Assembly (NCBI GenBank): GCA_964503625.1
Contig: CAZDAU010000004.1
Span: 39,964 to 103,963, forward strand
Direction: 5' to 3'
Source of the DNA: an uncultured Anaerolinea sp.
Lineage (GTDB): Bacteria > Chloroflexota > Anaerolineae > Anaerolineales > UBA4823
Length of the DNA stretch: 64,000 bases
Shown here: positions 3 to 23,220 of the stretch, one piece after another
How positions within the stretch are numbered: position 1 is the first letter of the stretch
Layout: each line of letters begins with the position of its first letter
Position numbers and translations under genes: made by a program
Notes under the pieces: generated by a model
Database searches by the model: none
The model's input: the letters and a program-made list of their open reading frames with translations, nothing else
What the model was told of the DNA's origin: nothing

Positions 3-266
3 GGCGGGACAAAAACGGTTGCCTATGGCGGCACTCCTGTGATCGTGCTGCGCACCGCTGAAAGCATCCGTGCGTATTCGATGATCTGCACCCACCTCGG
101 CTGTACGGTGCAGTGGCAGGAAGCGCCTAAAGAGTTTTATTGTCCCTGCCATGATGGGCGCTTTGACCAGTTTGGTGAGGTGCTCGCCGGCCCGCCGCCG
201 GTGCCTCTGGAGCAGATCCCTGTGAGCGTGCAAGGCGAGACAGTCACGGTTGGCGAGCCGGTTTGA
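3..266 (+). CDS. Rieske [2Fe-2S] protein (5' truncated by window edge)
   Basis: CTHLGC and CPCHDG Rieske boxes plus GPPP motif; frame is open back to position 3. Confidence 0.9.
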   Translation, partial: GGTKTVAYGGTPVIVLRTAESIRAYSMICTHLGCTVQWQEAPKEFYCPCHDGRFDQFGEVLAGPPPVPLEQIPVSVQGETVTVGEPV

Positions 267-295
267 GTCCGATTGCAAGAGACGACGAGGCGCGA

Positions 296-5111: not shown

Positions 5112-5285
5112 ATGATGGATATTTCAAGCCTGGCTTACGCCTTTATTAATACCCCCGGTGTGGGCGGTGTTGTGATCCTGCTGGTCTTTCTGACTGCGTG
5201 CAGCATCTATTATGCCCTGACACGGTGGATCATCGCCGGCGGCGACCATCCCACGGACAGGAGTAAACAAGAGCATGAAGGCTAG
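5112..5285 (+). CDS. Unannotated 57-aa single-TM protein
   Basis: Hand translation MMDISSLAYAFINTPGVGGVVILLVFLTACSIYYALTRWIIAGGDHPTDRSKQEHEG; GGAG 7 nt upstream; fills the gap between the NrfD stop and the next start. Confidence 0.65.
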   Translation: MMDISSLAYAFINTPGVGGVVILLVFLTACSIYYALTRWIIAGGDHPTDRSKQEHEG

Positions 5286-7239
5286 AGCAATTACCCCTCC
5301 CGCCATGGTTCTCCTGCCAGTGATTCTGATTACGGTGCTGGCGTTCAGCGCATTCTTAGCAAAGGCAGCGCCGACCGAGGCCCAGAAATCCTGGCAGCCA
5401 GGAGCCAATAATCCAACGCCCATCGCCAGCAATTACTGCCTGAGCTGCCACACCCCCGGCGACTCACGCCTGGATGACCCCACAGCCTGGCAGGGAGGGA
5501 TCGCCGCGGCCAGCAACTCGCCTTGCCCAGCAATGAAAACCATCCAGGAAGAGCTATATTACACGGAGCGCTTGCTCCTGGCAATTGACCGCTACCGGTC
5601 TGACCTGCCAGGCTATGTGGACGCCAGCAGCCTGGATGGCAGGCTGGCTGCCGGGCAGCAGGGCTACCTGCGGCTGCTGGACGCGCCGGTGACCAGCCTG
5701 GACGCCTTCACCGCAGAGGCGCAATCGGTGCGCTACAAGCTTGGAAAAGTGTACAGCGGAATTCAGGCGCTGGACGAGGCGGCCAAGCGGAGGCGTGCCT
5801 TGGTGGCGGGGATCGTGGTCAGTTTGGTCCTGCTTGGCTCGTTGGTTTGGGGGTTATACAACACCCGCCACGTGCGGAAAGCGCAGCCTGTCCGCAGCCG
5901 CACGGCCATCTTGGGCGTGGCTGTTTTCTTAATCCTCGTTTTTGTTTTCTTTGCCCTGCCCTTGCTGCGCGTGCCCGCTGAAGAAGTGGTCACCGATGCC
6001 GAAGCTCAGGCGCTACAGACCACCCTGGATACCGCCCAGCGGGCGGCGACGGCCGGCGACCGATCACAGGCGCGCGCCTGGATCCTGGGCAAGGTAGCTG
6101 CAATGTGGGCGCCAATCGACCCGGACAGGGCTGAGGCAATTCTGGCGGAGGCGCAGGCGGCCTCCAAACAACAGCGCGCGAATGCCCTGGCCCTGTGGGG
6201 CGAGGCGGCTTCCGCCCAGGAAGCAGCCACTGGCGACCTGGCAAAGCTGGAGACTGCCGGGCTGATTTCCAATGAGCTCAATGCAACCCGCGCTCGAACC
6301 TGGGATCTGCGCCTGATCGCCCAGGAATGGCAGCCGATTGACCCCGGGCGGGCAGACCAGATCCTGGAAGGCGCCCTGGAAGCCTCCGCACAGGCACAGG
6401 GCATCTACCGCGATCTGGACCGGCGCGGGATTGCCGCAGCGTTTGCTGGATCGGATCTGCAGCGCGCTCTGGAGATTGCCGGGCAGATTCAGGATCCAGA
6501 GCTGCGCGCCTGGGCCTTGCGGGAGATTCGCGGGGATAGCGCCGAGCCGCAGGCGACCGCAGGCGATCCAGCTGCCCCAGAAGCCCAAACCCTGGCCCTG
6601 CTGCGCAGCGGCCTTGCAGGTGACCGGACCATCTGGCCAGCAGCCTGGGAGGCCAGCCTGGCGATCCCAGACGTTTTTGAGCGCGGGCGCGCCCAGGTGG
6701 AAATTGCCCGCGGCTGGGCAGAGAGCGAGCCAGACCAGGCTCTGATGGTTGCTCAACAAATTGAAATTCCACTGCTGCGTGATCGCGCCCTGCGTTTTGT
6801 CATCCTGAAAACGGGAGATGCGTCACTGTTCAGTCAGATCGAAAACCCCTATGATCAAGTGATGGCGCTTACCGCCCTGGGCCGCTACAGCGAAGCAGAA
6901 GCGCTTGTTGGCGACCTGAAAGAGACCTACCCGGTGGTGAAGCTGGTCCAGGCGCTGGCAAAGGTGGACCTGCAGAAAGCCCTGACCCTGGTGGACGGCC
7001 TGCAGCGTGAGGCAGATAAGGCAGAGGCATTGCGGACCCTGGCCGTGCTCAGCCGAGACCCGGCGCTTTTCGAGCGGGCCCTGGGCATGGCGCTGGCAGC
7101 CCGGGTGCGCAACGACCCGCTGGCCCCAGTCCAGGCTTCGCTGGACCTGGCGGATGCTTTTCTGATGATCGATCCTGCCCTGGCCCAACAGGCCCTGGCG
7201 CAGGCCTATGAGATTGCGCAACGGATATCGGTTAAATAA
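5275..7239 (+). CDS. Membrane-anchored monoheme cytochrome c with long Ala-rich helical-repeat domain
   Basis: N-terminal signal/anchor; CLSCH; two internal TM helices; C-terminal ~400 aa of helical repeat-like sequence. Confidence 0.7.
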   Translation: MKARAITPPAMVLLPVILITVLAFSAFLAKAAPTEAQKSWQPGANNPTPIASNYCLSCHTPGDSRLDDPTAWQGGIAAASNSPCPAMKTIQEELYYTERLLLAIDRYRSDLPGYVDASSLDGRLAAGQQGYLRLLDAPVTSLDAFTAEAQSVRYKLGKVYSGIQALDEAAKRRRALVAGIVVSLVLLGSLVWGLYNTRHVRKAQPVRSRTAILGVAVFLILVFVFFALPLLRVPAEEVVTDAEAQALQTTLDTAQRAATAGDRSQARAWILGKVAAMWAPIDPDRAEAILAEAQAASKQQRANALALWGEAASAQEAATGDLAKLETAGLISNELNATRARTWDLRLIAQEWQPIDPGRADQILEGALEASAQAQGIYRDLDRRGIAAAFAGSDLQRALEIAGQIQDPELRAWALREIRGDSAEPQATAGDPAAPEAQTLALLRSGLAGDRTIWPAAWEASLAIPDVFERGRAQVEIARGWAESEPDQALMVAQQIEIPLLRDRALRFVILKTGDASLFSQIENPYDQVMALTALGRYSEAEALVGDLKETYPVVKLVQALAKVDLQKALTLVDGLQREADKAEALRTLAVLSRDPALFERALGMALAARVRNDPLAPVQASLDLADAFLMIDPALAQQALAQAYEIAQRISVK

Positions 7240-7289: not shown

Positions 7290-7931
7290 ATGGATCTTGT
7301 CAACATCACCCGCATCATCGCTTGGATCGGCCTGGCCCTCGGATGGCTCGGCATCCTGCTGCGCCTGGGCGAGATCATGCGGCGCCCTTTGAACAAAGAT
7401 TACTCTCCGCGGCGCGGCTCTGACCGCCGCGGCGTCCTTTACGCCTTCACCCTGGGCATGGCGCCCTGGGAAAAGGAGAGCACCCGCAAGCACTGGGTGG
7501 CTTACTTGCGGGGCATTTTCTTTCATGTGGGCGTGTTCACCGCTTTCGGCGTTTTTTTGGCCAGCCCGTGGCTGGAGGCGCTGCCGCCCTTTGTCACCTG
7601 GACCGCCCTGGCGCTGACCGCTGCCGGAGCCCTGTTTGGCTTCGCCGGAATCGGCATGCGCTGGATGGGCGAAAACGAGCGGGCGCTCAGCCTGCCAGAT
7701 GATTATTTTTCAGTCTTTTTGAGCTCACTTTTTACGGCCCTGGCCTGCGGCGTACTGTTTTGGCCTGGGCTGCTGGCGGTTTTCTACCTGGCAACGGCGC
7801 TCCTGTGCGTCTATATCCCCTTCGGTAAAATCCGGCATTGTGTGTATTTCTTCTATTCGAAGTTCTTCTTTGGCAAGAACTTCGGCCACCGAGGCGTGCT
7901 TGGCCCAGACAACCAGAAGGCGTTGGAGTGA
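7290..7931 (+). CDS. NarI/HmcE/DsrM-like membrane cytochrome b subunit
   Basis: FFHVG, SLPDDY and YIPFGKIRH motifs; about 5 TM segments; adjacent to a CCG-domain protein. Confidence 0.75.
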   Translation: MDLVNITRIIAWIGLALGWLGILLRLGEIMRRPLNKDYSPRRGSDRRGVLYAFTLGMAPWEKESTRKHWVAYLRGIFFHVGVFTAFGVFLASPWLEALPPFVTWTALALTAAGALFGFAGIGMRWMGENERALSLPDDYFSVFLSSLFTALACGVLFWPGLLAVFYLATALLCVYIPFGKIRHCVYFFYSKFFFGKNFGHRGVLGPDNQKALE

Positions 7932-7937
7932 ATCGAT

Positions 7938-9293
7938 ATGGCAGATGAGAAACCTACGGATGGTAAATTTGCCGCTGAACGCTATCAGCTTACCGATGAA
8001 AAAGCCAGGCTGGCGTTGGATGTGCTGCGCCAGCGGCTGAACCGCCAACTGGAAGCCTCGCTGGAGGTTTGCGTGCGATGCGGCCTGTGCGCCGACTCCT
8101 GCCATTATTATGTGGCTAACCCCAGGCCAGAATACGTGCCTGCTTACCGCGCCGAACAACTGCGGAAAATTTACCGCAAGCTGAGTGATCCGCTGAGCAA
8201 GGTTTCCCCTGGGTGGACTGGAGCCGCCGAGCTGGACCAGGAGATGGTGGAAAAATTGATCTACACCGCCTTTGGCTCATGCACCATGTGCGGGCGCTGC
8301 GTCATCAATTGCCCGGTGGGTGTGGATACCCGGCACATTGTGCGCACCGCCCGGGCAATGCTGACCGCCATCGACATGACACCGGAGGGATTGAGAGCCA
8401 CCGTCAACGTCCATCTGGAAAGCGGCAATAATATGGGCGTTGGCGAGGAAGATTACATTGAAACGGTCAAGTGGATGGAGGAAGAGCTGCAAGCTGAGCT
8501 GGATGATCCCGGATTGACCATCCCCTTCAACAAAAAGCGCGCCCACGTGGTGTACACTTTCAACCCACGGGAGGTGAAATACTTCCCCTACCTGATCCAG
8601 GCGGCGGCAAAAATCTTCACGGCTGCCGGCGAGGACTGGACATTGAGCACCGAGAACTGGGACGCCACCAACTATGGCTTGTTCTCTGGCGACGATGCCG
8701 CCGCGCGGACCATCGCTGGGAACCTGGAGAAAGCGGTGAACAACCTGGGCGCGGATGTTTTGGTGATGGCGGAGTGTGGGCATGGCTACCGCTCGCAGCG
8801 CTGGGAGGCTGAAAACTGGCTCGGCCGCAGCTATCCCTTTAAGGTCACCAGTTTTGTCGAGATGCAGGCTGAATACATCCGCCAGGGACGTTTAAAGCTT
8901 GACCCCATAGTCAATGCCAAGCGGGTGACCTACCACGACCCCTGCAACCAGGCCCGCCAAGGAGGTGTTATCCACGAGCCGCGCTATATCCTGCGCCACG
9001 TAGCTATTGATTTTGTCGAAATGGAGCCGCACGGGGTGGATAACTTCTGCTGCGGCGGTGGTGGCGGGATGCTCTCGATGAGCGAATTTGCGAAAGACCG
9101 CATTGCTGCTGGCAAGGTGAAAGCAGATCAGATCCAGGCCACCGGCGCAGAGATCGTGGCCACCTCGTGCCATAATTGCCTGGACCAGCTTGACGAAATC
9201 CGCCGGCATTATAAACTAAAGGTGAAGGTCCAGAACCTGAGCGAGCTCACCGCTGCTGCGATCGTCTGGACGAAAACCCAGGACAGAAAATAA
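7938..9293 (+). CDS. Heterodisulfide reductase-like Fe-S protein (HmcF/DsrK/TmcB-like)
   Basis: CVRCGLCADSC and CTMCGRCVINCP; CCG domain CX34CCGX37CX2C (YHDPC...FCCGGGGG...SCHNC). Confidence 0.88.
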   Translation: MADEKPTDGKFAAERYQLTDEKARLALDVLRQRLNRQLEASLEVCVRCGLCADSCHYYVANPRPEYVPAYRAEQLRKIYRKLSDPLSKVSPGWTGAAELDQEMVEKLIYTAFGSCTMCGRCVINCPVGVDTRHIVRTARAMLTAIDMTPEGLRATVNVHLESGNNMGVGEEDYIETVKWMEEELQAELDDPGLTIPFNKKRAHVVYTFNPREVKYFPYLIQAAAKIFTAAGEDWTLSTENWDATNYGLFSGDDAAARTIAGNLEKAVNNLGADVLVMAECGHGYRSQRWEAENWLGRSYPFKVTSFVEMQAEYIRQGRLKLDPIVNAKRVTYHDPCNQARQGGVIHEPRYILRHVAIDFVEMEPHGVDNFCCGGGGGMLSMSEFAKDRIAAGKVKADQIQATGAEIVATSCHNCLDQLDEIRRHYKLKVKVQNLSELTAAAIVWTKTQDRK

Positions 9294-9313
9294 CCCCAGC
9301 GTGGAGGAACTTC

Positions 9314-9514
9314 ATGTACATTATTACCATTGACATCGATAAGTGCCAGGCTTGCGGCGACTGTGTGGATAATTGCCCAAACTTGCTCTTCAGCATCACC
9401 GAAGAAGATGGCCGGAAGTACGCCATGGTCAGCGGAGACCCCGACGAATGCATCGGCTGCCTGTCGTGCGAGGCTTCCTGCAGCGAAGGGGCCATCACCG
9501 TCACTGAGCTCTAA
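9314..9514 (+). CDS. 2x[4Fe-4S] ferredoxin
   Basis: CQACGDCVDNCP and CIGCLSCEASC; GGAGG RBS. Confidence 0.92.
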   Translation: MYIITIDIDKCQACGDCVDNCPNLLFSITEEDGRKYAMVSGDPDECIGCLSCEASCSEGAITVTEL

Positions 9515-9548
9515 GCCACTGAGCCTGAGTTAACCAGCGGACGACCCG

Positions 9549-10958
9549 TTGGCCCCAGCCACCCCTCTACCCCGCCTGGTGATCGCCGCCCCACAAGGGC
9601 GCAGCGGCAAAACCACGCTCTCCTTGGGCATCTGCGCCGCGCTGGCCCGGCGCGGGTTGGATATCCAGCCATTTAAAAAAGGACCCGATTATATCGATCC
9701 TTCCTGGCTCAGCGAAGCTGCCGGGCGCGCCTGCCGCAGCCTGGATCCTTTCTTCCTGCCTGGGGCGGCGGCGTTACGGAAGGCACTCTTGAAAGGCGCC
9801 CGCCGGGGCGAGCAGGCAGCCGACCTCTGCCTGGTGGAAGGCAACCACGGCTTGTACGACTCGCTGGAAGAGGACGGCAGCGGCAGCAGTGCAGCGGTGG
9901 CCCGGATCTTGGGGGCGCCGATAATCCTGGTGGTCAATGCAGCGCGCATGTCGCGCAGCGCAGCCGCCATGGTCCACGGCTACCAGACTTTTGAGCCCGA
10001 TACCCCCATTGCAGCCGTCATCCTGAACAACGTTGCCCAGGGCCGCCACCTGGCCAAGCTGCGCCGCGCCATCGAAAGCCACTGCCGCATCCCTGTGATC
10101 GGCGCACTGCCGCGGGACGCCAACCTGACGATCCCAGACCGCCACCTGGGTCTTGTGCCACGGGGCGAGGACCCCGGCCTGCTCCCGGTCATCCAGGCTT
10201 GCCGCCAGGCTGTGGAGCGCTTTGTGGACCTGGAAGCCCTGCTGGCAATTGCGCGTTCGGCGCCCGCCTGGGAAGTCCCAGGCGAGCCGGTCGAAGCATC
10301 CAGACCTGCGCAAGGCCAGCGCAGCCAACCGGTCATCGGTGTGCTGCGTGACCAGGCCTTCTCCTTTTACTACCCGGAAAACCTGGAAGCGTTGGAAGCC
10401 TGTGGGGCGCGACTGGTGTTTATTGATGCCCTGCACACATCCCGCCTGCCCCGGGTTGACGCCCTGTATATGGGTGGAGGCTTCCCTGAGATCTTTATGG
10501 AGACTCTGAGCCAAAACACAGCCTTCCGCCAGGATGTGCGCCAGGCTGCTGAAGATGGGCTCCCGGTGTACGCCGAGTGCGGTGGCTTGATGTACCTGTC
10601 GCAGCGGATAAGATCAGCCGGTCAGCAGGCAGAGATGGCCGGCGTCCTGCCATGCGAAGTGGAGATGACACTCACCCCACAGGGGCACGGTTATGTGTTG
10701 GCCGAATGCACTGGCCAAAACCCGTTTTTTGCTGTTAACACCCGGCTGCGCGGCCATGAATTTCACAATTCACGCCTGACTGGCCTGCCAGAAGGGTGGC
10801 CAGCCGCCCTGCGGTTGGAGCGCGGGGCGGGCATCGGCGGCGGGCGGGATGGGCTGGTCTATCGCAATGTCTTTGCCAGCTACATGCACCTGCACGCTGC
10901 CGGGGCCCCTGGCTGGGCGCAAAGCCTGGTCGATGCGGCCCAGCGTTTTGCGGCCTAA
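9549..10958 (+). CDS. cbiA: Cobyrinate a,c-diamide synthase family (CbiA/CobB; DsrN-like)
   Basis: GRSGKTT, FKKGPDYID, VEGNHGLYD, AFSFYY, AECGGLMYL, GHEFH motifs. Confidence 0.9.
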   Translation: MAPATPLPRLVIAAPQGRSGKTTLSLGICAALARRGLDIQPFKKGPDYIDPSWLSEAAGRACRSLDPFFLPGAAALRKALLKGARRGEQAADLCLVEGNHGLYDSLEEDGSGSSAAVARILGAPIILVVNAARMSRSAAAMVHGYQTFEPDTPIAAVILNNVAQGRHLAKLRRAIESHCRIPVIGALPRDANLTIPDRHLGLVPRGEDPGLLPVIQACRQAVERFVDLEALLAIARSAPAWEVPGEPVEASRPAQGQRSQPVIGVLRDQAFSFYYPENLEALEACGARLVFIDALHTSRLPRVDALYMGGGFPEIFMETLSQNTAFRQDVRQAAEDGLPVYAECGGLMYLSQRIRSAGQQAEMAGVLPCEVEMTLTPQGHGYVLAECTGQNPFFAVNTRLRGHEFHNSRLTGLPEGWPAALRLERGAGIGGGRDGLVYRNVFASYMHLHAAGAPGWAQSLVDAAQRFAA

Positions 10959-11095
10959 AAGCCATCTGATGCCTCCTTTAGCTACTTGCCAAAGATTCAA
11001 TTTCACCCAGCCCATTTGCCAAATGCCGCCTTAAGACCTGATTAGAGTATTCCCAATTGATAAGAAACTTAGTAAAATAAAGTTGGAATTCATCG

Positions 11096-11136
11096 GGCTG
11101 ACCTTCGCAGCAAGATCAAGGGCAGCCTTTTTTTTT
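11096..11136 (+). terminator. Intrinsic terminator-like hairpin with T9 tail
   Basis: GGCTG-a-CCTT...AAGG-g-CAGCC followed by nine T. Confidence 0.65.
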
Positions 11137-11168
11137 CAATTGCAGGAGCGCGCACCATCAGGTGCAAT

Positions 11169-11768
11169 ATGATTTACCAAAAGGTCGTCGAATACGTTGA
11201 TATCCAGGCGCCGCGCCAGGAGGTGTTCAGCCTGATCACTCATATTGAGCGGCGCTTACAGCTCAGCCCATTGTGGGGCGTAGCCAGCCTGGAGGCCAAA
11301 AACGGTAATTACCCCCAGGTGGGCAGCACCTACAGGGTGCGCCTGGTGGAAGGCGAGCAGCCACCCTACGAAACCATCGTCACCGCTTACGAGCCTTATC
11401 AAAAATTCGCCTATTGCCTGGACGTGGACCGGCAGACAAGCGTCACCTGGACCCTGCAAGAGATCAAGATGGGCACCCGGCTGACCTATGAAGAAATGTT
11501 TTTGGTCGATGAAGAAGCAGAGCAGGACTTTATTAAGTCGGTGCGCGGTGTGGTGCACAATTGGCTGGCAAACATCCAACGCTACGCTGAACTGCGCCAG
11601 AGCAAAGCCAAGCGCCTGGCGCGCTGGCTGGTGGATCATCTGTATCTAGGCCTGCGCCCTGACCAACGGCGGGTGATCCTGACGATCTTGTTCATGCAGG
11701 CCGTGGCCGCAATCGCCTTCATCATGGCTGCCCTGGGCATGGGGCTGGTTTCCCTGTTTATTCGGTGA
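11169..11768 (+). CDS. SRPBCC/polyketide-cyclase-fold protein with C-terminal TM helix
   Basis: VDIQAPRQEVF start typical of SRPBCC; hydrophobic C-terminus. Confidence 0.6.
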   Translation: MIYQKVVEYVDIQAPRQEVFSLITHIERRLQLSPLWGVASLEAKNGNYPQVGSTYRVRLVEGEQPPYETIVTAYEPYQKFAYCLDVDRQTSVTWTLQEIKMGTRLTYEEMFLVDEEAEQDFIKSVRGVVHNWLANIQRYAELRQSKAKRLARWLVDHLYLGLRPDQRRVILTILFMQAVAAIAFIMAALGMGLVSLFIR

Positions 11769-11860
11769 TAACCATTTGATTTTTCTTATTGTGGCGTTTT
11801 CGGGCGAAAAATTTGCCCCAAAACGCCACCGATTTATCTTACCCAAAGTCTGTCAGGCAG

Positions 11861-12676
11861 CTAAGAAGGCTCGTAGCAGCACCGGAAGCCAGTATCATCA
11901 CTGCGGTGCATGGGCGCGGCCCAGCTTCGGTAGGCACAGCGATTCAGGAAGCGGCCTTCCCGCCAGGAACCGCCGCGCAACATGGCTTTATCAAAGGCGG
12001 CTTCGGTAGAATTTACCATCGAGGTACCGCCGGTTTCATGAAAGCGTGGCAGCGCCGAAAGCGTATCCAGCCGGTGTACCAGCGCCTCCCGCCCATCCTC
12101 AGGGTCGTAGGGATACGGCCGATATAGCGAAGAGACCCACTCCTGCACATTGCCCGCCAGGTCGGCCACGCCATAGGGGCTGTCGCCCTGGGGCGAGTAC
12201 TTTGTGACTGGGGTGATAGCTAGCGGCACGCTGCGGTCACGAGTCTCTTTGCCGCTGGCGTTATTGCAACGCCCAGGCTCCCACTGATTCCCCCAGGGGT
12301 ACACCCGCCCATCCGTCCCGCGGGCGGCCTTCTCCCATTCCGGCTCGGTCGGCAGGCGCACCGGCAGGCCGGTGACCTGCCTGGCCCACAGGCAAAACGC
12401 GGCCGCATCCAGGAAGTTCACCCCCACCACGGGGTGGTCGGCCTGGTCATCCGGGAACTTGCCGCCCGCCCAGAATAATGGCGCCCGGTGGCCGGTGGCC
12501 TGGATAAACAAGTGGTACTGAGCGTTTGTAACCGGATAGCGCATGATGTAGAACTCAGAAACCATCAGAATGTGCTGGGGCATCTCAGCTTCAGAGGCTT
12601 CCGGGTCTGCCTGGCGCTTGCTGCCGATGATGAATTCACCAGCCGGGATGTAAACAAAATTCAAATCTAATTGCAT
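11861..12676 (-). CDS. Formylglycine-generating enzyme (SUMF1) domain protein
   Basis: IPAGEFIIGS, YPVTNAQY, RLPTEPEWEKAARG, YPWGN, LAGNVQEW, RGGSW, TGFRC. Confidence 0.88.
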   Translation of the reverse strand: MQLDLNFVYIPAGEFIIGSKRQADPEASEAEMPQHILMVSEFYIMRYPVTNAQYHLFIQATGHRAPLFWAGGKFPDDQADHPVVGVNFLDAAAFCLWARQVTGLPVRLPTEPEWEKAARGTDGRVYPWGNQWEPGRCNNASGKETRDRSVPLAITPVTKYSPQGDSPYGVADLAGNVQEWVSSLYRPYPYDPEDGREALVHRLDTLSALPRFHETGGTSMVNSTEAAFDKAMLRGGSWREGRFLNRCAYRSWAAPMHRSDDTGFRCCYEPS

Positions 12677-12715
12677 AATTTACTCCATGGTAGAAAATTG
12701 GATGATGCTTGAGTT

Positions 12716-13375
12716 TCAGGCGATCCCGTTGGGGGTAACCCAGCCCGCCCGAGCGGCGTAACGCAGCAGATCAACACTGCTGCGCACACCAACTTTGGTC
12801 ATCAGGCTGCTCCGATGGACTGAAACCGTTTTGGGGCTGATGCCCAGAAGATGGGCAATTTCTTTATTACTCTTGCCTTCAATCAAGTAATGGAGGACCT
12901 GCATCTCACGCTGGGTTAAACTCACTTTGGGGTCCGGTTCTTTGGCCTGCGGCTGGGTCAGGTTTTCAATCACCTGACGGGTAATACTGGCTTCCAAATA
13001 GGCGCCATGCTCAAAAACCTGATGAATAGCCGTCACCACTTCCCGGCCGCCTGAACGTTTTAGCACATACCCCGACGCCCCAGCGCGCAGCATTGGCTCA
13101 ACGTACTCGTGGTCATCATGCTGCGTCAGGATCAACACGCGCACCTGTGGGAAACGAGCTTTGATTTGCCGGGTCGCCTCTAATCCATCCATCTCCGGCA
13201 TGGAGACATCCATCAGCACCAGGTCGGGCAATAAAGCCTGGACTCGTTCAATTGCTTCGCGGCCATTGGCGGCCTCGCCCACCACATGGATATCCTCCTG
13301 CCGCTCGAGCAGCGAGCGGATACCATCCCGCAAAATTGCGTGGTCATCCACCACCAAAACCCGAATATCAGCCAT
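12716..13375 (-). CDS. NarL/LuxR-family response regulator
   Basis: REC domain (VVDDH, LMDVSMP) plus LuxR HTH (LTQREMQVL...SNKEIA). Confidence 0.93.
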   Translation of the reverse strand: MADIRVLVVDDHAILRDGIRSLLERQEDIHVVGEAANGREAIERVQALLPDLVLMDVSMPEMDGLEATRQIKARFPQVRVLILTQHDDHEYVEPMLRAGASGYVLKRSGGREVVTAIHQVFEHGAYLEASITRQVIENLTQPQAKEPDPKVSLTQREMQVLHYLIEGKSNKEIAHLLGISPKTVSVHRSSLMTKVGVRSSVDLLRYAARAGWVTPNGIA

Positions 13376-16193
13376 GAGGAGCCTTCCCGTTCCCCAGCGG
13401 CACGCGAATATTTAATTGAGTGCCGCTGCCAGGGGTGGATTGGATTTCCAATTCTCCGCCCAGCAATTCCAAACGTTCCTGCATCCCTAACAGGCCCAGC
13501 CCACGCGGGTTATCTGGGGAGAGGCCCAACTCGTATGGATCAAAGCCAATGCCGTCATCTTCGACGCACACACAGACGTTTTCCGGATCCATCGCATAGG
13601 TAATGGAGACATTACGCGCCGCTGAATGGCGGGATATGTTTGAGACAGCTTCTTGCATCACCCGGAAAATTGCCGTCTCAACTTCGGGGGCCAGGCGGTG
13701 GGTCTCGCCTCGCTCTTCAAAGCGGATGCGCACACCTTTCGCCTCCAGCCGGGTTTTGGTCAGCCAACGAATCGCCGGCACCAGGCCAAGATGATCAAGC
13801 ACCGAGGGGCGCAGGTCAAAAATCAGTTTGTGCACCCCGTCCAGGGTGTGTTGGATGAGCTCGTGCATCCCATCCAGCCGCTGGCGCACGTCTTTCAAGC
13901 TACTCATCTCACGGGCTTCTTCAGAAGCAAAGAGCAGAGCCGTGAGCGACTGGCTGGTCTCGTCGTGCAACTCGCGGGCGATGCGACGGCGCTCTTCTTC
14001 CTGAGCGTTGATCGCCTTCTTAAACAGCTCACCGCGCATGCGCTCTTTGATCTGGCCTTCCTCGTACAGGCGGGCATTCTCGATGGCCACGGCGATCTGG
14101 CTGCCAATGGCTTTGAGCAACTCCTGCTCGTCGACGTCAAAATCCCGATCCTGCCGGGTGCCCACGCACATGCTGCCAAGAACGTAGCCCTTGGCTGTCA
14201 GGGGCACGTGCACCAGCGTGTTCAGCTTTTCCTGCTGCAAAGATTGCGCCCGCCGCCCGTGAAAACGGGAAAGATCAGGCACCACCACCACCCGACCATG
14301 TTCAGCCACGCCGCCGCAAGAGCCATCCAGGAGGCCGGTATCTGCGGCTACCCGAGCGGCTTCTTCCGAAAGGCCGCGGTAAGCCGTCAGGCGCATCTCT
14401 CCACCTTGCTCCTCGATCAGAAAAACTGCGCCAACGTCCACCTGGGTCAAGCGCAGAACGGCATCCAAAGCTCGTTCGAGGATATCTTCCAGCTTGAGAG
14501 ATTGGTTCACCGTGGCAGCGACCGCGTTCAGGATGGATAACTGCTGGTTGCGCCGGATGAGCGACTCTTTGATCTTCTTCTCTTCACTCACATCCCGAGT
14601 CAGCTCCACCACCCGGCTAATCTGGCCATGCAGATCGCGCAAGGGCGAGGCAGTAATTTCACGGTAAATTGGATCATGCCCAGGGCGGCCATCCAACACG
14701 TGGGTAACCCGCACCGTTTCCCCACTTTGCAAGACAACAGGGATGGGGCACTCCACATCGCCAGGAGCGCCGGGCAGCTCCGGATGACAGCCTTGATAGC
14801 AGGGCCGGCCAACAATATCCTGGATCAAGCCGGTATAATTCTGAGCAGCCCGGTTAGCCAGCTCAATACTGAAATCGGCAACTTTGATCACAATCAGCTC
14901 ATCGTCAAGGGCATCGATGATGGCGCGTAAATCATCCCGCACTGCCTGGGCCTGCAGTTGCGCCGCCAGGGCGTCCTGGGTGCGCTCCTGCACACGACGG
15001 TCCAGCTCGCGATTGAGAGAGTTAATCTCCTCAATCGAGGTCTGCAATTGCCGGCGCATTGCTTCAAAATTCTCCGCCAGGGCGCCAATTTCATCCTGCC
15101 GGCGCCGTCGCAAGGCAAACCAGCCGGTGAAGAGCTGATCCAAAGGGGTGGTCAGATCGCCGGCCTTGATCCGCTCGACCGAGTCTTTGAGCATCTGCAC
15201 GGGCTTAATCACACTGTTGGTGGTCACCAACACCAACACCATGGCACCGAGGATGCTTGCCAATCCCAGGCTAAGCGTTTGAATCAGCAGGCGGTTGACT
15301 GGCGCCATCAGCTCGCTGGCTTTTTGGCGCACCACCACCCCCCAGGGCGCCTCGGCAAGCGGGGCAAACGCCACCACCTCTTCATGCGACTCGGCCGTTT
15401 CGCCTCCGCCGCAACCCAGACAGGTCTCCACCATCGGCTCGCCAGACTGGAACATCTTTTGCAGCTCTTGCGGGGCGCTGGCGGCCAGGGCGCGCTCAGG
15501 ATGAGAGCTGATCAGCACCCTTCCCTGGGCATCGATCAGGTCCAATGTGCCGGTTTTACCGAGGTCGATTGCGCTTTGGAAAGGAGCAAGACTGGCGCTG
15601 CGAAAATTCATTGTGACCACCAGCCAGCCATCCAAATTACCGTCCGAGTCCAGGGTGGGCTGTGTGATCATTGCCAGTGGCTCACCAGCCGGCGAGATCA
15701 CAAGCCTGGGTGAAGTTTGGGATTGGGTTTTCAACAAGTCCGGGGGAAATCGTGTCAACCGGTCCCGGTCGCCGGCGCTGCTGATGATTTCCCCAGTCAC
15801 ATCCAATAAATAGATCCCCTGGCCAAACTCGGCCACGTGGCCGAGGGCATCCTGCAGGGCCGCCTGGCGCTCGGCTTCGGTCAGGCTCTGCAATGTGCTG
15901 TGCTCGGCGAACAACTCCAGGACATTGTGCACATGCCTGAATGTTGAGTCCAGGCTGGCAGCGCTCAATCGGGCAAGCTGGACTCGCTCGTTCAAGATTT
16001 GCCGGGTGGATTGGCGGGCGGCGCTGATGCCCAGGAACAGAAAAATCGCAATCAGACCCACCACGCCCACTTCCACCAGCAGGCCCATCTTGGCCCGCAG
16101 GCCCACATTATCCCAGCGCTGCTCCAGGCTGGTGGTGGTGAAACGCCGCAGCCGTTCTTTCCATTTCAAAGAGTGGTTTTCTATTGGGGTCAT
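13368..16193 (-). CDS. Sensor histidine kinase (TM-Cache-TM-HAMP-PAS-GAF-HisKA_3-HATPase)
   Basis: Two TM helices; ERRRIARELHDE H-box; QEAVSN, DDGIGF, GLGLLGM boxes. Confidence 0.92.
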   Translation of the reverse strand: MTPIENHSLKWKERLRRFTTTSLEQRWDNVGLRAKMGLLVEVGVVGLIAIFLFLGISAARQSTRQILNERVQLARLSAASLDSTFRHVHNVLELFAEHSTLQSLTEAERQAALQDALGHVAEFGQGIYLLDVTGEIISSAGDRDRLTRFPPDLLKTQSQTSPRLVISPAGEPLAMITQPTLDSDGNLDGWLVVTMNFRSASLAPFQSAIDLGKTGTLDLIDAQGRVLISSHPERALAASAPQELQKMFQSGEPMVETCLGCGGGETAESHEEVVAFAPLAEAPWGVVVRQKASELMAPVNRLLIQTLSLGLASILGAMVLVLVTTNSVIKPVQMLKDSVERIKAGDLTTPLDQLFTGWFALRRRRQDEIGALAENFEAMRRQLQTSIEEINSLNRELDRRVQERTQDALAAQLQAQAVRDDLRAIIDALDDELIVIKVADFSIELANRAAQNYTGLIQDIVGRPCYQGCHPELPGAPGDVECPIPVVLQSGETVRVTHVLDGRPGHDPIYREITASPLRDLHGQISRVVELTRDVSEEKKIKESLIRRNQQLSILNAVAATVNQSLKLEDILERALDAVLRLTQVDVGAVFLIEEQGGEMRLTAYRGLSEEAARVAADTGLLDGSCGGVAEHGRVVVVPDLSRFHGRRAQSLQQEKLNTLVHVPLTAKGYVLGSMCVGTRQDRDFDVDEQELLKAIGSQIAVAIENARLYEEGQIKERMRGELFKKAINAQEEERRRIARELHDETSQSLTALLFASEEAREMSSLKDVRQRLDGMHELIQHTLDGVHKLIFDLRPSVLDHLGLVPAIRWLTKTRLEAKGVRIRFEERGETHRLAPEVETAIFRVMQEAVSNISRHSAARNVSITYAMDPENVCVCVEDDGIGFDPYELGLSPDNPRGLGLLGMQERLELLGGELEIQSTPGSGTQLNIRVPLGNGKAPHG

Positions 16194-16228
16194 TAGCTAA
16201 CCTGTTCGACACGTAAACATTATGGAAG

Positions 16229-17314
16229 CTACAAGTCAGCAACTTTGGCCATTGGGCCAGGCCACTCGCAATAACGCGCCCGGCCGCAATGCTTGCACAC
16301 ACCCTCTTCCAGCAGTTTCTCGTAAACGCCCTCAAACTCGCCCATCAAATCATACCATTCAAAGGTGCGCCCAATCGTCACCCGCAGGGGTGTTTTGGGC
16401 ATCTTGAAAGCTTGCCGGGCCTTTGACCCATCGAAATAGAACATCTTGGATTCCAAGCGCAGGCGGTTTCCGGTGAGCGGAACCGGGCCGCTGCTCTGCG
16501 GTTGGAGTAAATCAGTCAGGCCGGCGACGAGCGAGACCTGCCAACGGGACATGACCTTGAGCTTCATCCCACAGCCGACCACATTGGCAATCGTGCGGTA
16601 GAGCTGTAAATAAGTCATATTTTCGCCAGCCAGGATGTAGCGCTCTCCGACAATGCCTTTGAGAGCCGCTTCAATGTGTCCTTGGGCAACATCGCAGATC
16701 GGGACCACATTCACCCCGCCGGGGGGAATGAGCGGCGGCACGCAGTGTTTGACCACCTCCACCACCATGCCGCTGGACACTTTGCGGATATCCCTAGGAC
16801 CAATCACCGTGGTCGGGTTAACAATCACCGCCGGCAGTCCTTTTTTGACCAGATCCAGGACAATCTTCTCGGCCAGGAACTTGCTGTGCCCGTAGACGAA
16901 ACGCTCCGGTTTGACGTTGAAAGTATAGCTCTCATCAACAATTACATCTGGGTGAATGCCCATTGCAGCGGTGGAGCTTGTGTGGACCACCCGCCCCACA
17001 CCAGACCGCAGGGCGGCTTCCATCACATTGCGGGTGCCCTCCACATTCACCCGGTACATCCAGTCAACGCCCTGCCGCCAGTAATCCACCACCCCGGCGG
17101 CGTGGAAAAGGACATCAATGCCCTGCATCGCCTGGGGGAGGGTTTCCGGCTCCAGGATGTCTCCGGTCATGTATTCAAAAGGCCCGCCTTCCAGCAAGAT
17201 CCGGTTCGCCCCAGGCCGCTCCAGGATGCGCACCTGCCAGCCATGCTCGATCAGGCGCAAGGCAATGTTCGACCCCAGGAAACCCGTGCCGCCGGTCAGG
17301 AGCGCGACCGCCAT
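16229..17314 (-). CDS. NAD-dependent epimerase/dehydratase (extended SDR, DFR/HpnA-like)
   Basis: TGGTGFLG, HAAG, HTSS, YGHSK motifs. Confidence 0.88.
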   Translation of the reverse strand: MAVALLTGGTGFLGSNIALRLIEHGWQVRILERPGANRILLEGGPFEYMTGDILEPETLPQAMQGIDVLFHAAGVVDYWRQGVDWMYRVNVEGTRNVMEAALRSGVGRVVHTSSTAAMGIHPDVIVDESYTFNVKPERFVYGHSKFLAEKIVLDLVKKGLPAVIVNPTTVIGPRDIRKVSSGMVVEVVKHCVPPLIPPGGVNVVPICDVAQGHIEAALKGIVGERYILAGENMTYLQLYRTIANVVGCGMKLKVMSRWQVSLVAGLTDLLQPQSSGPVPLTGNRLRLESKMFYFDGSKARQAFKMPKTPLRVTIGRTFEWYDLMGEFEGVYEKLLEEGVCKHCGRARYCEWPGPMAKVADL

Positions 17315-18900
17315 TTCACCAAAGCCTCCACCAGGCCTTCGACTGTGTGCTCGCCAGCGACCAGATCAACTCGGACTCCCGCCTGCTCTGCAGCGTGAGC
17401 CGTTGTTGGCCCTACACACGCTGACGTCATCCGGTCCAAGATCGCCAGCGCCTGCTCCCGCTTAACAACCGTCTCAAGCATGCCAAGCAGCCCGCGCACC
17501 GCCGAAGGGCTGAAAAAGACCACCACATCCAGCAAGCCGTTGATCAATTCCTGCATCACCTGCAAATCTGGCTCAGCTGCGGCCACGGAATATGCGATGG
17601 CTGTCTCCACAAAGGCGCCTCTGGCTTGCAAAGCCTGAACCAGGTCGGGAGGGGCGATCTCGGAACGCGGCAGAAGAACACGCTGACCGCTCAGGTCGCC
17701 CACCTCGGCGGCCCAATCCAGGCCCGTGAACCGGGAGGGGACAAAATCCACCCGCAGGTGATAGCCCGCCAGCGCCTGGGCTGTGGCCTTGCCCACCGCC
17801 CCCAGCCGCACCCCAGGCAGGATGCGCGCGTCGTAACCCTGGTCAAACATGCGTTCAAAGAAGAACTGAACTGCGTTGGCGCTGGTGAAGACGATCCAGT
17901 CGTAGGCGGGTCTCATGCCAGATGCAAGCACGCTGCCGGCCGAATGCGCCAGGCGATGAATGGCGCGATCCAGACTGGAGGGATCCACCGCCGGTACGAT
18001 GCGAGTTGCAGGCAGGTTGAGCACTTCGGCTCCCAGGTTGAAAAGACGTTCATCCAGATCATCCCGCTCCAAAGAGGCTTGCGGGCGAGTATTCAATATT
18101 CTTAAGCCCAGCAAGGGCCGCGCCTGGGGCAGGTCAAACCAACGCAGCTGGCTGCGCAGGCGGACCACTTCGCCAACAATGGTGATCGCCGGCGGCTGGA
18201 TATCCTGAGATTGCTCAACAATGTTCTCCAGCGTACCCTCCACCACCTTTTGGTGGGTTGTTGTTCCTTGTTGGATCACCGCCGCGGGAGTATCCGGCGA
18301 GCAACCGCTCTCAATCATACGCTGGACGATGGCGGGCAGGTTGGTCACTCCCATCAAGAAGACCCGGGTGCCCGCGCTCAATGCAGCGCAATCCAGCGCC
18401 CCGGCAATATCATCAATACCCTGCGAGCGGTGTCCGGTGATGATAGCAAGGCTGGCAGCCATTCCGCGTTGGGTCACCGGGATGCCCGCGTAGGCTGGCA
18501 CAGCCACAGCGCTGCTGACGCCAGGGATGACTTCAAATGGGATGCCCGCTTCGACCAGCGCTAAAGCCTCCTCGCCGCCACGCCCAAAAACAAAAGGATC
18601 GCCGCCTTTCAAGCGCACCACCACAAGCCCGGCACGGGCATGCTCAACCAGCAAGGCATTGATTTCTGCTTGAGGGATCGGGTGATGGTCGGGCTGCTTG
18701 CCCACATCGATCCAGCGCGCCTGAGGCGCATGGCGGCGCAACAACGGGCTGACCAGGCGATCAAAGACCACCACCTGGGCCTGCTGCAAACATTCCAGCC
18801 CGCGAACGGTGATCAGGCCTGGGTCACCCGGCCCAGCGCCTACCAGGTAAACCCTTCCAGAATTTCCTGTTTTTGCATGAGGGTCAGCCCAATCGTTCAA
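17296..18900 (-). CDS. cobA-hemD: Uroporphyrinogen-III C-methyltransferase / uroporphyrinogen-III synthase fusion
   Basis: VGAGPGDPGLIT, RLKGGDPFVFGRGGEE; C-terminal FTSANAV, VGKATA, FFSPSAV, CVGPTT. Confidence 0.93.
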   Translation of the reverse strand: MNDWADPHAKTGNSGRVYLVGAGPGDPGLITVRGLECLQQAQVVVFDRLVSPLLRRHAPQARWIDVGKQPDHHPIPQAEINALLVEHARAGLVVVRLKGGDPFVFGRGGEEALALVEAGIPFEVIPGVSSAVAVPAYAGIPVTQRGMAASLAIITGHRSQGIDDIAGALDCAALSAGTRVFLMGVTNLPAIVQRMIESGCSPDTPAAVIQQGTTTHQKVVEGTLENIVEQSQDIQPPAITIVGEVVRLRSQLRWFDLPQARPLLGLRILNTRPQASLERDDLDERLFNLGAEVLNLPATRIVPAVDPSSLDRAIHRLAHSAGSVLASGMRPAYDWIVFTSANAVQFFFERMFDQGYDARILPGVRLGAVGKATAQALAGYHLRVDFVPSRFTGLDWAAEVGDLSGQRVLLPRSEIAPPDLVQALQARGAFVETAIAYSVAAAEPDLQVMQELINGLLDVVVFFSPSAVRGLLGMLETVVKREQALAILDRMTSACVGPTTAHAAEQAGVRVDLVAGEHTVEGLVEALVKWRSRS

Positions 18901-19550
18901 CCACCATTCTCCACACTCGCCGATAAGATTTGTTGCGCCCTGGCACGAGCAGCCTGCTTTCCGGCAGACTTCAGGATCTCCAACAGATCGGAATCCACAA
19001 GGCGCAAAGCGGCTTCCAGGCGCGGCTCACCTGGGGCAAAGCGGGCCTGCAGCTCGGGCCTCAGCTCCGCCAGCAGGCTGGCCAGATCGCCGTATTCCGG
19101 TCCAATAAGCGCTTCCAGTTTCTCGCGCAGGCGGCGCGCCAGGGCCGGGCTGGCTCCACCGGTGGTGATGGCAACTTTGACTTCGCCGCGCTGCACAACC
19201 GCCGGGACAATGAAGTTGCTGTGCCTGGGATCATCCACCACATTGACCAGGCAGCCGCGCCGGACCGCTTCGCTCCACACCGCCCCGTTGACCGGCGGGT
19301 CATCGGTGGCAGCAATCACCAGGAACGCGTCTGCCAGGTCGCCCGCCTGGTACAACCGTGGGACCATCTCCAACCCGGCGTACAAACCAGCCAGGTGATC
19401 AAACTCAGCGCAGAACTGTGGACTGATGACGATAACCGGCGCGCCGGCCTCCAACAGCGCCTCGGCCTTGCGCGCCGCAACCTTGCCGCCGCCAATCACC
19501 ACCACCCGCCGGTTTTCCAAGCCAACCAGACAGATTGGATAAGTCTTCAC
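18897..19550 (-). CDS. Precorrin-2 dehydrogenase / sirohydrochlorin ferrochelatase (CysG-N, SirC/Met8-like)
   Basis: VVIGGGKVAARK, LVIAATDD, VNVVDDP, ITTGGASP. Confidence 0.9.
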   Translation of the reverse strand: MKTYPICLVGLENRRVVVIGGGKVAARKAEALLEAGAPVIVISPQFCAEFDHLAGLYAGLEMVPRLYQAGDLADAFLVIAATDDPPVNGAVWSEAVRRGCLVNVVDDPRHSNFIVPAVVQRGEVKVAITTGGASPALARRLREKLEALIGPEYGDLASLLAELRPELQARFAPGEPRLEAALRLVDSDLLEILKSAGKQAARARAQQILSASVENGG

Positions 19551-19778: not shown

Positions 19779-21131
19779 ATGCCTATCCAATGCCTCGGTA
19801 TCGATCACAAAAACGCCCCCATTGAACTGCGTGAAAAGTTGGCTTTTAGCGATGACCAAATCCGGATGTCGCTTTCCCGGATAAGCTGTAGCGCCGATTG
19901 TCCCAATACCAGCAAAATGCTCCAAGAGATGGTCATCCTTTCGACCTGCAACCGCACCGAATTGTACGCGGTCAGCATGGAGCCAGCCTTCGAAGAGCTG
20001 GAAGCGTTTCTGAGCGATAACTGCCGGGGTGTCTTAGGCGCAGAGTTGGATTTTGACGAAATTCGCCCCCGTCTGTTTCGCCTGACCGATCGCGAAACCG
20101 TGGAGCATTTGTTTGCTGTCGCCTGCGGCCTTGAATCGCAGGTGCTGGGAGAGCCACAAATCCTGGGGCAGGTCACGCACGCCCTGGAGCTGGCGCACGG
20201 CGTGGGCGCAGTGGGCACAATACTCACCCGGCTGTTCAAGGCCGCCATCCATGTGGGGAAGCGCGCCCACACCGAAACGCACATCAGCAAGAATCCCACT
20301 TCTATCTCATCATTGGCTGCCCGGCTGTGCGAACAAAGTGTTCGCAACCTGGCAGAGGCCCAGGTGGTCATTGTGGGCGCGGGCGAAATGGCCCAGTTGG
20401 CAGCGGAGGCTTTGCGCAAACGCGGTGCGCAGCACTTGCTGGTACTCAACCGCACCCTGGAGCGGGCTCGAACCCTGGCCGATCACTGGCAGGCATCCTA
20501 CGATACCTTTGAGAATCTGGAACAGGCCCTGCGCGGCGCGGATATTGTCATTGCATCTACCAGCGCGCCGCACCTGGTGATTCATTCCGAGATAGTCACC
20601 CGGGCAATGGTGGGCCGGAAACCGCGCCCGCTGGTGTTGGTGGATATTGCTGTGCCGCGTGATATTGATCCTGAGGTGGGCAACATCCCGCACGTGCGTC
20701 TTTATGACATTGACCATCTCAGCGCGCAGCTACAAGGCGCCCTGGCAGAGCGAGCCAGCCAGATACCGCTGGTGGAGGCCATCCTGGCTGAAGAGACCGG
20801 GCGCTTCATGGGCTTTATGGAATCGCTGGACATGCTGCCGCTGATCGCTGGACTGCACCAACAAGCCGAAGAAATGCGCAAGGCAGAGCTTCAAAAAACA
20901 CTCCGCCACATGCCCGATCTCACCGCTGAAGAGATTGCTCGAATCGATGCGCTGACGCGTGCGCTGGTCAAGAAGATGCTGCACGCCCCCACCCGGCGGC
21001 TGCGCGCCGAGTCGGCTTGCCCCCATGCCCCTCAGTACGCCACTGTGGCCCAAACGCTGTTCGATTTGCCAGGCCAGGACGTGGTGTGCCATTTTTCCGG
21101 CAAGACCTGCCCGATAACAATCGAGAATTAG
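19779..21131 (+). CDS. hemA: Glutamyl-tRNA reductase
   Basis: ILSTCNRTE, GLESQVLGEPQILGQV, GAGEMA, DIAVPRDID. Confidence 0.96.
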   Translation: MPIQCLGIDHKNAPIELREKLAFSDDQIRMSLSRISCSADCPNTSKMLQEMVILSTCNRTELYAVSMEPAFEELEAFLSDNCRGVLGAELDFDEIRPRLFRLTDRETVEHLFAVACGLESQVLGEPQILGQVTHALELAHGVGAVGTILTRLFKAAIHVGKRAHTETHISKNPTSISSLAARLCEQSVRNLAEAQVVIVGAGEMAQLAAEALRKRGAQHLLVLNRTLERARTLADHWQASYDTFENLEQALRGADIVIASTSAPHLVIHSEIVTRAMVGRKPRPLVLVDIAVPRDIDPEVGNIPHVRLYDIDHLSAQLQGALAERASQIPLVEAILAEETGRFMGFMESLDMLPLIAGLHQQAEEMRKAELQKTLRHMPDLTAEEIARIDALTRALVKKMLHAPTRRLRAESACPHAPQYATVAQTLFDLPGQDVVCHFSGKTCPITIEN

Positions 21132-21143
21132 AGAAAAAACTGA

Positions 21144-22088
21144 ATGAAGCTGATCTTTGCCACTCGTCCCTCTCAATTGGCTCGCTGGCAAACCCGCTGG
21201 GTGATTGAAGCGCTGCAGCTGGCCTGGCCCGGATTGGAGTGCGAGGAGAAGATCATCACCACCCAGGGCGATCAGATTCTGGACAAACCCCTGCCCGAAA
21301 TTGGCGGTAAGGGCCTCTTCACCCAGGAGCTGGAATCCGAATTGATTCATGGCAACGTCCACGCTGCTGTACACTCATTGAAAGATTTACCCGTAGACCT
21401 TTCGCCTGGGCTGGCAATCGGCTGCATCCCGGCGCGAGTCGAGGTTCGGGATGCGGTTGTCTCAAGCAACGGTTGGACCCTGGACGGGCTGCCCACTGGG
21501 GCGCGTCTGGGTACGTCGAGCCTGCGTCGGGCTGCCCAGGCGCTGCACCGCCGACCGGACCTGGTTGTAGAGCCGCTGCGTGGCAACATCGACACCCGCC
21601 TGCGCAAGGCCCGCGAAGGTCAATACGACGCCATCCTGCTGGCAGGTGCCGGGTTGATCCGCATGGGCTGGGAGGCGGCTGTCAGTGAATGGCTTGATTT
21701 AGAAGTCATGCTTCCTGCCCCCGGGCAGGGAGCCCTGGCTGTCCAATGCTGCGACCAGGATGCCGACACACGTCGCCTTTTGTCCGCCCTGGAAGACCCG
21801 GCTGCACGCGCGGCTGTCACGGCTGAGCGCGCCTTTCTGCAAGGCCTGGGCGGCGGCTGCTCCGTGCCAGTGGCGGCCTATGCTTGCCCAAAGGTTGGGA
21901 ACCGGGCAAATGACCAGGATTGGCAACTGATCGGACGGGTACTCTCGCCAAACGGCCGGCAGATGATCCAGGTTGAGGGGAATGGCCACGATCCGGTTGA
22001 GTTGGGGGCGCGGCTGGCTCAAAGCGCCCTGGATCAAGGCGCTGCAGCGCTGTTCAGCCTGGAGATCCCAAAGCTTAATAATCCATGA
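21144..22088 (+). CDS. hemC: Hydroxymethylbilane synthase
   Basis: TRPSQLARWQT, GGKGLFT, HSLKDLP, GTSSLRR, RGNIDTR, AERAFL..GGGC. Confidence 0.96.
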   Translation: MKLIFATRPSQLARWQTRWVIEALQLAWPGLECEEKIITTQGDQILDKPLPEIGGKGLFTQELESELIHGNVHAAVHSLKDLPVDLSPGLAIGCIPARVEVRDAVVSSNGWTLDGLPTGARLGTSSLRRAAQALHRRPDLVVEPLRGNIDTRLRKAREGQYDAILLAGAGLIRMGWEAAVSEWLDLEVMLPAPGQGALAVQCCDQDADTRRLLSALEDPAARAAVTAERAFLQGLGGGCSVPVAAYACPKVGNRANDQDWQLIGRVLSPNGRQMIQVEGNGHDPVELGARLAQSALDQGAAALFSLEIPKLNNP

Positions 22089-22119
22089 AGACTGTGGCAC
22101 AAACAAAAATCGTTAAACG

Positions 22120-23193: not shown

Positions 23194-23220
23194 CTGTTTA
23201 TCGATATGAGGTGATATTGT

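Follow-up and report, generated by a model that had tools for sequence, protein, structure and literature searches.

A CbiA-family amidotransferase gene that closes a dissimilatory sulfite reductase gene cluster in an uncultured Anaerolinea is very probably dsrN

A lone gene of the CbiA/CobB family (positions 9549-10958) ends a redox gene cluster in a stretch of DNA from an uncultured Anaerolinea, and this raises the question of which tetrapyrrole its product amidates and for which enzyme. The window, meaning the whole stretch of 64,000 nucleotides that was analysed, corresponds to C4:39964-103963 of genome G000, whose assembly of 3.43 Mb in 104 contigs is 85% complete. A preliminary description of the window had placed a DsrK-like gene and a ferredoxin gene before the amidotransferase gene, reported no dsrAB or dsrC in view, and left two alternatives: dissimilatory sulfur metabolism, or modification of a tetrapyrrole for an unknown enzyme. 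The genes that it named are real, as all of them were found as open reading frames (ORFs) with strong family matches, and the amidotransferase gene is the last gene of the redox cluster on the plus strand. We consider this gene to be very probably dsrN, the last enzyme gene of a string that runs from dsrA to dsrN in this member of the Anaerolineales. This assignment from sequence draws on the genes that are present, the clade of the protein, synteny, co-occurrence across genomes and intact catalytic motifs, all of which were established here.

The statement that dsrAB and dsrC are out of view holds for the window, because the window edge cuts off the dsr part of the cluster; outside it, on the same contig and strand, these genes are present. 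The upstream stretch C4:22000-40700 (locus L004) was scanned with Pfam and NCBIfam for genes that precede window base 1, and dsrA-dsrB-dsrD-dsrC-dsrM-dsrK were found at C4:34188-39437 on the plus strand, as are the redox genes of the window. dsrA begins 5.8 kb upstream of window base 1, while dsrK, the last upstream dsr gene, stops 527 nucleotides short of it. The dsrA model matched C4:34221-35378 in the genome search with 565 bits against a cut-off of 393, and dsrB (518 bits) adjoins it. dsrD was assigned by PF08679 in the scan of the upstream stretch and dsrC by PF04358 (134 bits), where both conserved C-terminal cysteines of DsrC are kept. A family match places dsrM between dsrC and dsrK, and the product of the latter is the true DsrK, with 515 bits against a cut-off of 400.

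From dsrA to dsrN, about 20 genes follow each other on the same strand within about 16.7 kb, with intergenic gaps of at most about 150 nucleotides. After dsrA-dsrB-dsrD-dsrC-dsrM-dsrK, the order is an ORF of 106 amino acids, a Rieske protein, an ORF of 136 amino acids, a molybdenum oxidoreductase, an iron-sulfur subunit and an NrfD-family protein, followed by an ORF of 654 amino acids, a TmcC-like protein, a TmcB/HmcF-like protein, a ferredoxin and dsrN (Table 1). The full Rieske gene lies at L004:17730-18230, downstream of dsrK and the 106-residue ORF, and the 136-residue ORF overlaps the start of the oxidoreductase gene. On its 3' side, a gap of 210 nucleotides separates dsrN from an SRPBCC gene, beyond which the genes are convergent and lie on the minus strand. 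No convincing terminator was found after dsrN in the promoter and terminator scan, and no Rfam family, such as a cobalamin riboswitch, was matched in the window.

The relatives of the protein were observed to separate according to the genes that surround them. We assembled 80 genomic loci of relatives with 10-kb flanks and labelled them by neighbouring genes and not by names; the dsr label was given by tblastn with the Dsr proteins of this genome, and the cob label by Pfam scans of representatives, after the ORFs that flank the other loci had been clustered. dsr genes lie within 10 kb in 45 of the 80 loci, which belong to Chloroflexota, Bacillota, Acidobacteriota, Bacteroidota/Kryptoniota/Ignavibacteriota and gammaproteobacterial sulfur oxidisers. 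Genes of the cob type (CobT, CbiB, CobQ, CobS, CobU, CobO, CobC phosphatase and CobD aminotransferase) were found within the same distance in 20 loci. A single branch of the IQ-TREE phylogeny (LG+C20+F+G4 with posterior mean site frequencies, PMSF, quick search), with a support of 99 in the Shimodaira-Hasegawa-like approximate likelihood ratio test (SH-aLRT), divides 50 rows from 30 and sets all dsr-linked rows apart from all cob-linked ones. The larger side consists of the 45 dsr-linked rows and 5 on short contigs, and the smaller of the 20 cob-linked rows and 10 without context. When only these two labels are considered, one change on the tree accounts for each, compared to a mean of 17.5 after shuffling. 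An independent FastTree phylogeny gave the identical split with a support of 1.0, and this was unchanged after the second Methanomassiliicoccales paralogue was added. The window protein lies inside a Chloroflexota dsr clade of 18 rows, mostly labelled as Anaerolineales (support 100), where its nearest row is from an Anaerolinea metagenome-assembled genome (MAG) at 74-75% identity. Hence, of the two alternatives in the preliminary description it is dissimilatory sulfur metabolism that is borne out, with dsrABDC-MK in the same gene string and the protein in the dsr-linked clade.

The same association was observed in the distribution of the gene over 61 genomes drawn from the genus, family and order of this organism, nine of which carry dsrA. 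A DsrN orthologue of at least 63% identity occurs in exactly these nine, and in seven of the eight other dsrA-positive genomes dsrN lies 13.5-16.2 kb 3' of dsrA on the same contig. CbiC was found in none of the nine dsrA-positive relatives, and the three relatives that do have CbiC carry only CbiA-type homologues of 38-48% identity. Orthologues of SirC (at least 55% identity) are present in the same nine genomes, mostly 8-9 kb beyond dsrN, and within the family none was found outside the dsrA-positive genomes. The siroheme branch (SirC, CobA) tracks dsrAB perfectly in this lineage.

The catalytic equipment of the protein is retained. The motifs GKT (residues 20-22), PDYID (46-50), VEG (96-98), ECGG with Cys344 and GHEFH (402-406) are all kept at positions which we take to be those of CbiA that were studied by mutagenesis. 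The core residues G20-K21-T22, P46, D47, D50, E97, E343, C344, G346, H403, F405 and H406 are common to the dsr and cob clades. By homology with CbiA/CobB, the N-terminal P-loop domain would activate an acetate carboxylate of siroheme with ATP, and the C-terminal GATase domain (Cys344, His403/406) would hydrolyse glutamine and deliver the ammonia. The product would be a siroheme amide that serves as the prosthetic group of DsrAB. Besides the homology, this scheme leans on the genetics and cofactor chemistry reported for DsrN of Allochromatium vinosum, as summarised in PMC10504309. Siroheme is the substrate that we infer from the clade, the linkage and that same summary, and the reaction and the direction of the pathway are likewise to be read as predicted.

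The rest of the genome seems to leave the siroheme branch with a single user. Proteins with the siroheme-binding NIR_SIR domain are DsrA and DsrB only in the whole assembly, so that there is no need to invoke an amidase that serves an unknown enzyme. The CobA-HemD fusion and the SirC/Met8-like gene lie 6.3-8.6 kb downstream of the amidotransferase gene, close to where they had been described, and their operon, convergent with the cluster, would supply siroheme from uroporphyrinogen III, with DsrN as the final tailoring step of the branch. Haem is made via HemE and HemY and therefore does not need siroheme here. Since neither a corrin-ring pathway nor another siroheme enzyme was found in the genome, the branch appears to serve DsrAB alone.

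As for cobamides, the genome holds one CbiA homologue and a cluster for salvage and nucleotide-loop assembly (CobO, CobT, CobS, CobC phosphatase and CobU at C56:14719-18605). The remark that no other cobalamin-specific genes are present holds for contig C4, where no cob genes were found, and has this salvage set as its genome-wide complement. CobQ and CbiC were not found in the 85%-complete genome, CobQ and CbiB were unmatched in tblastn with the Cob proteins of cob-linked Chloroflexota loci, and the salvage cluster contains no ring-synthesis genes. A complete cob pathway and a grouping with cobalamin CbiA, the two findings that had been named beforehand as speaking against DsrN, were thus not obtained. 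The organism is probably a corrinoid salvager; it is not a B12 producer, nor is it the home of an unknown tetrapyrrole enzyme.

Several points weigh against the assignment as dsrN. The predicted reaction goes back to work on A. vinosum that PMC10504309 summarises. A model for DsrN is lacking in NCBIfam, whereas the generic one for the cobB subfamily (TIGR00379) is passed at 460 bits, so that the name given by a hidden Markov model (HMM) alone would be CbiA. Only three positions (17, 19 and 277) discriminate the dsr from the cob clade, and weakly; with so few, substrate specificity is unreadable from the sequence. At a completeness of 85%, it is not proven that the organism lacks CobQ, CbiC, AprA and other siroheme enzymes, although five dsrA-positive relatives that are at least 95% complete are also without CbiC and aprA. 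Lastly, the tree holds no verified CfbB row, so that CfbB is excluded only through the HMM cut-off, the lack of McrA and the published tree (PMC10504309).

Two other readings were found to be very unlikely. In the first, the protein acts on a different tetrapyrrole, or on siroheme that is not destined for DsrAB; candidates would be a cofactor of the neighbouring molybdenum/iron-sulfur/NrfD/cytochrome complex, or Ni-sirohydrochlorin in a CfbB-like reaction. The few discriminating residues leave room for this, as do the 440 bits obtained on the CfbB model NF033195 and the constant upstream ferredoxin of the Chloroflexota loci, for which amidation alone gives no reason. However, the CfbB score lies below the cut-off of 560 bits and McrA was not found in the genome. 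The cut-off was reached by no row of the tree, neither by archaeal ones nor by the second Methanomassiliicoccales paralogues, and both Methanomassiliicoccales paralogues were placed outside the dsr clade. In addition to DsrA and DsrB being the sole NIR_SIR proteins, many phyla with dsr-linked orthologues have clusters without the molybdenum/Rieske module, which leaves DsrAB as the common denominator.

The second of these readings, to which we give equally little credence, concerns the pathway: the organism would be a full sulfate reducer or run an oxidative pathway, with apr/qmo or dsrEFH/dsrL merely missing from the assembly. The incompleteness of the genome and the presence of a sat gene speak for it. 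Of the genes that the preliminary description had proposed to look for in the genome, dsrA, dsrB, dsrC, dsrD and sat were found, but aprA was not. Furthermore, aprA was found in 0 of the 61 relatives, including the five dsrA-positive genomes of at least 95% completeness, whereas the same model, as a positive control, scored 911-912 bits in two Peptococcaceae sulfate reducers. The sat gene encodes a bifunctional Sat-CysC fusion (NF004040, 866 bits; C2:55375-57156, L007:1465-3246), an arrangement typical of the synthesis of 3'-phosphoadenosine 5'-phosphosulfate (PAPS). With queries from sulfur-oxidiser loci, DsrEFH had no match in the genome and DsrL a weak one of 27% identity, and published surveys of Chloroflexota agree (PMC10591310). 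The lack of aprA and the fused sat make sulfite or thiosulfate reduction likelier than sulfate reduction, and it is most likely what this organism does; the presence of DsrD, and of both C-terminal cysteines in DsrC, goes along with this.

That the protein is a CbiA/CobB of cobamide biosynthesis is barely credible: it does exceed the cut-offs of TIGR00379 and PRK01077 (the latter with 452 bits) and the genome uses cobamides through the C56 cluster, but it falls on the dsr side of the split (SH-aLRT 99, FastTree 1.0), its close orthologues are restricted to genomes that carry dsrA, where the distance between the two genes is fixed, and CbiC and CobQ were found neither here nor in the eight other dsrA-positive relatives, so that a CbiA-type substrate could not be made.

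As dsrN, the gene belongs to a known system, that of the described Anaerolineales DsrAB lineage, and is ordinary in this respect. DsrN is described as a siroheme amidase and is present in 1610 DsrABCMK genomes, Chloroflexi included, and in the tree of that study CfbB branches within the archaeal CbiA proteins, apart from DsrN (PMC10504309). A Dehalococcoidia dsr cluster has been described with dsrD and dsrN (PMC4959651), and the DsrAB 'uncultured family-level lineage 5', which has DsrD but lacks DsrL, is assigned to Anaerolineales hosts (PMC10591310). Like DsrN of A. vinosum and of the Dehalococcoidia DEH-C11 cluster (dsrABCMK with D and N), the protein is a two-domain amidotransferase encoded in a dsr cluster; it shares a clade with dsr-linked proteins of more than 8 phyla, has its catalytic motifs intact and is confined to dsrAB genomes. 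In most other phyla dsrN is found directly 3' of dsrAB(D) or dsrMKJOP, whereas here it occupies the far end of an unusually long cluster, 15.3 kb from dsrA, after the Rieske/molybdenum/iron-sulfur/NrfD module and a second HdrD-like pair. Compared to the textbook arrangement, it is this long respiratory-module insertion between dsrMK and dsrN, together with the constant ferredoxin-dsrN pair, that differs. CbiA/CobB, the cobyrin(hydrogenobyrin)ic acid a,c-diamide synthase, has the same fold family and ATP/glutamine chemistry and a generic NCBIfam model which the protein passes, but lies on the opposite side of the dsr/cob split, and in the present genome neither a corrin-ring pathway nor neighbouring cob genes were found. 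CfbB, the Ni-sirohydrochlorin a,c-diamide synthase of F430 biosynthesis, is a homologous amidase with a sirohydrochlorin-type substrate, from which the protein is set apart by its score and by its origin in a bacterial genome without a McrA match. The annotation question is thereby settled in favour of a putative sulfite or thiosulfate reducer of the described lineage. The addition made here is modest: the whole siroheme branch seems to serve DsrAB alone, and an uncharacterised short-chain dehydrogenase/reductase (SDR) accompanies it.

Table 1. Features of the window, from the start of the window to the end of the haem genes (positions are those of the window).
Position	Strand	Feature	Evidence or remark
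3..266	+	Rieske [2Fe-2S] protein, C-terminal part	PF00355 53 bits; truncated by window start
263..673	+	136-aa protein without family match	Kept in Chloroflexota dsr clusters, 44-70% identity, 17 loci
663..3062	+	Molybdopterin oxidoreductase, PhsA/QrcB-like	PhsA 308 bits, QrcB 289 bits, both below cut-off
3094..3780	+	4Fe-4S subunit, QrcC/DsrO-like	QrcC 269 bits; DsrO 192 bits against cut-off 200
3787..5109	+	NrfD-family membrane subunit, DsrP-like	Pfam/NCBIfam scans
5275..7239	+	654-aa protein, no Pfam/NCBIfam match	Kept in Chloroflexota clusters
7290..7931	+	TmcC-like membrane anchor	Weak match, 31.6 bits
7938..9293	+	Second HdrD/DsrK-family protein, HmcF/TmcB-like	Two 4Fe-4S motifs, one CCG domain
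9314..9514	+	2x[4Fe-4S] ferredoxin, 66 aa	Always directly 5' of dsrN in Chloroflexota loci
9549..10958	+	DsrN, putative siroheme amidase; CbiA/CobB-family ATP- and glutamine-dependent amidotransferase	Pfam CbiA and GATase_3
11169..11768	+	SRPBCC/AHSA1-like protein	Syntenic with dsrN in relatives
11861..12676	-	FGE-sulfatase (formylglycine-generating enzyme) family protein	Pfam/NCBIfam scans
12716..13375	-	LuxR-type response regulator	
13368..16193	-	Sensor histidine kinase, dCache-HAMP-PAS-GAF-HisKA_3	
16229..17314	-	HpnA-like extended SDR	Start overlaps cobA-hemD end by 19 nt
17296..18900	-	CobA-HemD fusion: uroporphyrinogen-III C-methyltransferase and uroporphyrinogen-III synthase	
18897..19550	-	SirC/Met8/CysG-N-like precorrin-2 dehydrogenase, possibly ferrochelatase too	
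19779..28245	+	Haem genes: hemA, hemC, hemB, AhbD-like radical SAM (TIGR04053), hemE, hemY-like, hemL	

The gene that had been called DsrK-like in the preliminary description does belong to the HdrD/DsrK family; it is a second paralogue nearer to HmcF and TmcB, about 31% identical to the DsrK encoded upstream. Its scores of 320 bits for HmcF, 291 for TmcB and 272 for DsrK (NF045796, cut-off 400) all lie below the respective curated cut-offs. It was therefore rejected as a canonical DsrK, given its DsrK score and the true DsrM/DsrK located upstream by dsrC. The TmcC-like/TmcB-like pair (7290-9293) to which it belongs was observed to be optional, being absent between the 654-residue gene and the ferredoxin in seven related clusters (the variation concerns loci L013, L015, L018, L019, L024, L028, L057 and L014). 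In L014 the pair is located 3' of dsrN, and the ferredoxin-dsrN pair is constant throughout. At the other end of the cluster, a gene for a YeiH-family membrane protein (PF03601) stands directly 5' of dsrA on the plus strand, in the region L004:8741-12058 (C4:30740-34057). In four loci of Acidobacteriota, Ignavibacteriota and Actinomycetota (L031, L039, L046 and L049), dsrA likewise has a YeiH-like gene on its 5' side. In the present genome, farther 5' of the YeiH gene, on the opposite strand, there is a radical SAM/SPASM maturase-like gene.

The block downstream of dsrN, which consists of the SRPBCC, FGE-family, response regulator, kinase, SDR, cobA-hemD and sirC genes, keeps its synteny with dsrN in seven or more related MAGs. 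Its HpnA-like SDR is more conserved than either DsrN or SirC, and orthologues of 75-85% identity were found in exactly the nine dsrA-positive genomes among the 61 relatives. A search of 400 genomes at the class level found it in 8, each of which also has dsrA. Taken together, 17 Anaerolineae genomes carry the SDR, all dsrA-positive, compared to none of about 430 dsrA-negative genomes; 11 dsrA-positive genomes at the class level are without it. The neighbours of this SDR in the Protein Atlas are generic SDR clusters only. The pattern may reflect co-transfer in a genomic island rather than a shared function. It is also conceivable, if rather improbable, that in some dsrAB-carrying Anaerolineae the tail of the cluster (ferredoxin-dsrN, with a second hemA in many relatives) and the adjacent operon (sirC-cobA/hemD-SDR-kinase-regulator) form a dedicated supply line for the DsrAB cofactor, in which the SDR, the ferredoxin or both perform an undescribed tetrapyrrole or insertion step.

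This second hemA, a paralogue of glutamyl-tRNA reductase, was observed directly 3' of dsrN in 11 related Chloroflexota clusters (L009, L011, L012, L014-L017, L019, L020, L024 and L057) at about 11.4-11.55 kb (about 4.2 kb in L016). It is missing from this window and from L008. The paralogue is 34-39% identical to the hemA of the window, and the copy in L011 scores 386 bits on TIGR01035. The haem genes of the window itself are divergent from sirC, and at 23221-26965 they combine hemE and a hemY-like oxidase with an AhbD-like radical SAM gene. The latter scores 459 bits on TIGR04053 and 368 bits, below the cut-off, on the AhbD model, and its product could be a coproheme decarboxylase. As listed, the hemE ORF shares 136 nucleotides with the radical SAM gene, so that the true start of hemE is probably later.

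Elsewhere in the genome, Sat-CysC is encoded although neither AprA nor a NIR_SIR sulfite reductase beyond DsrAB was found. A second DsrC/TusE-like gene is present at C43:22737-23162, 36-41% identical to DsrC of sulfur oxidisers, and a third DsrK/HdrD-like gene occurs with an adjoining iron-sulfur protein gene at C9:13292-15910.

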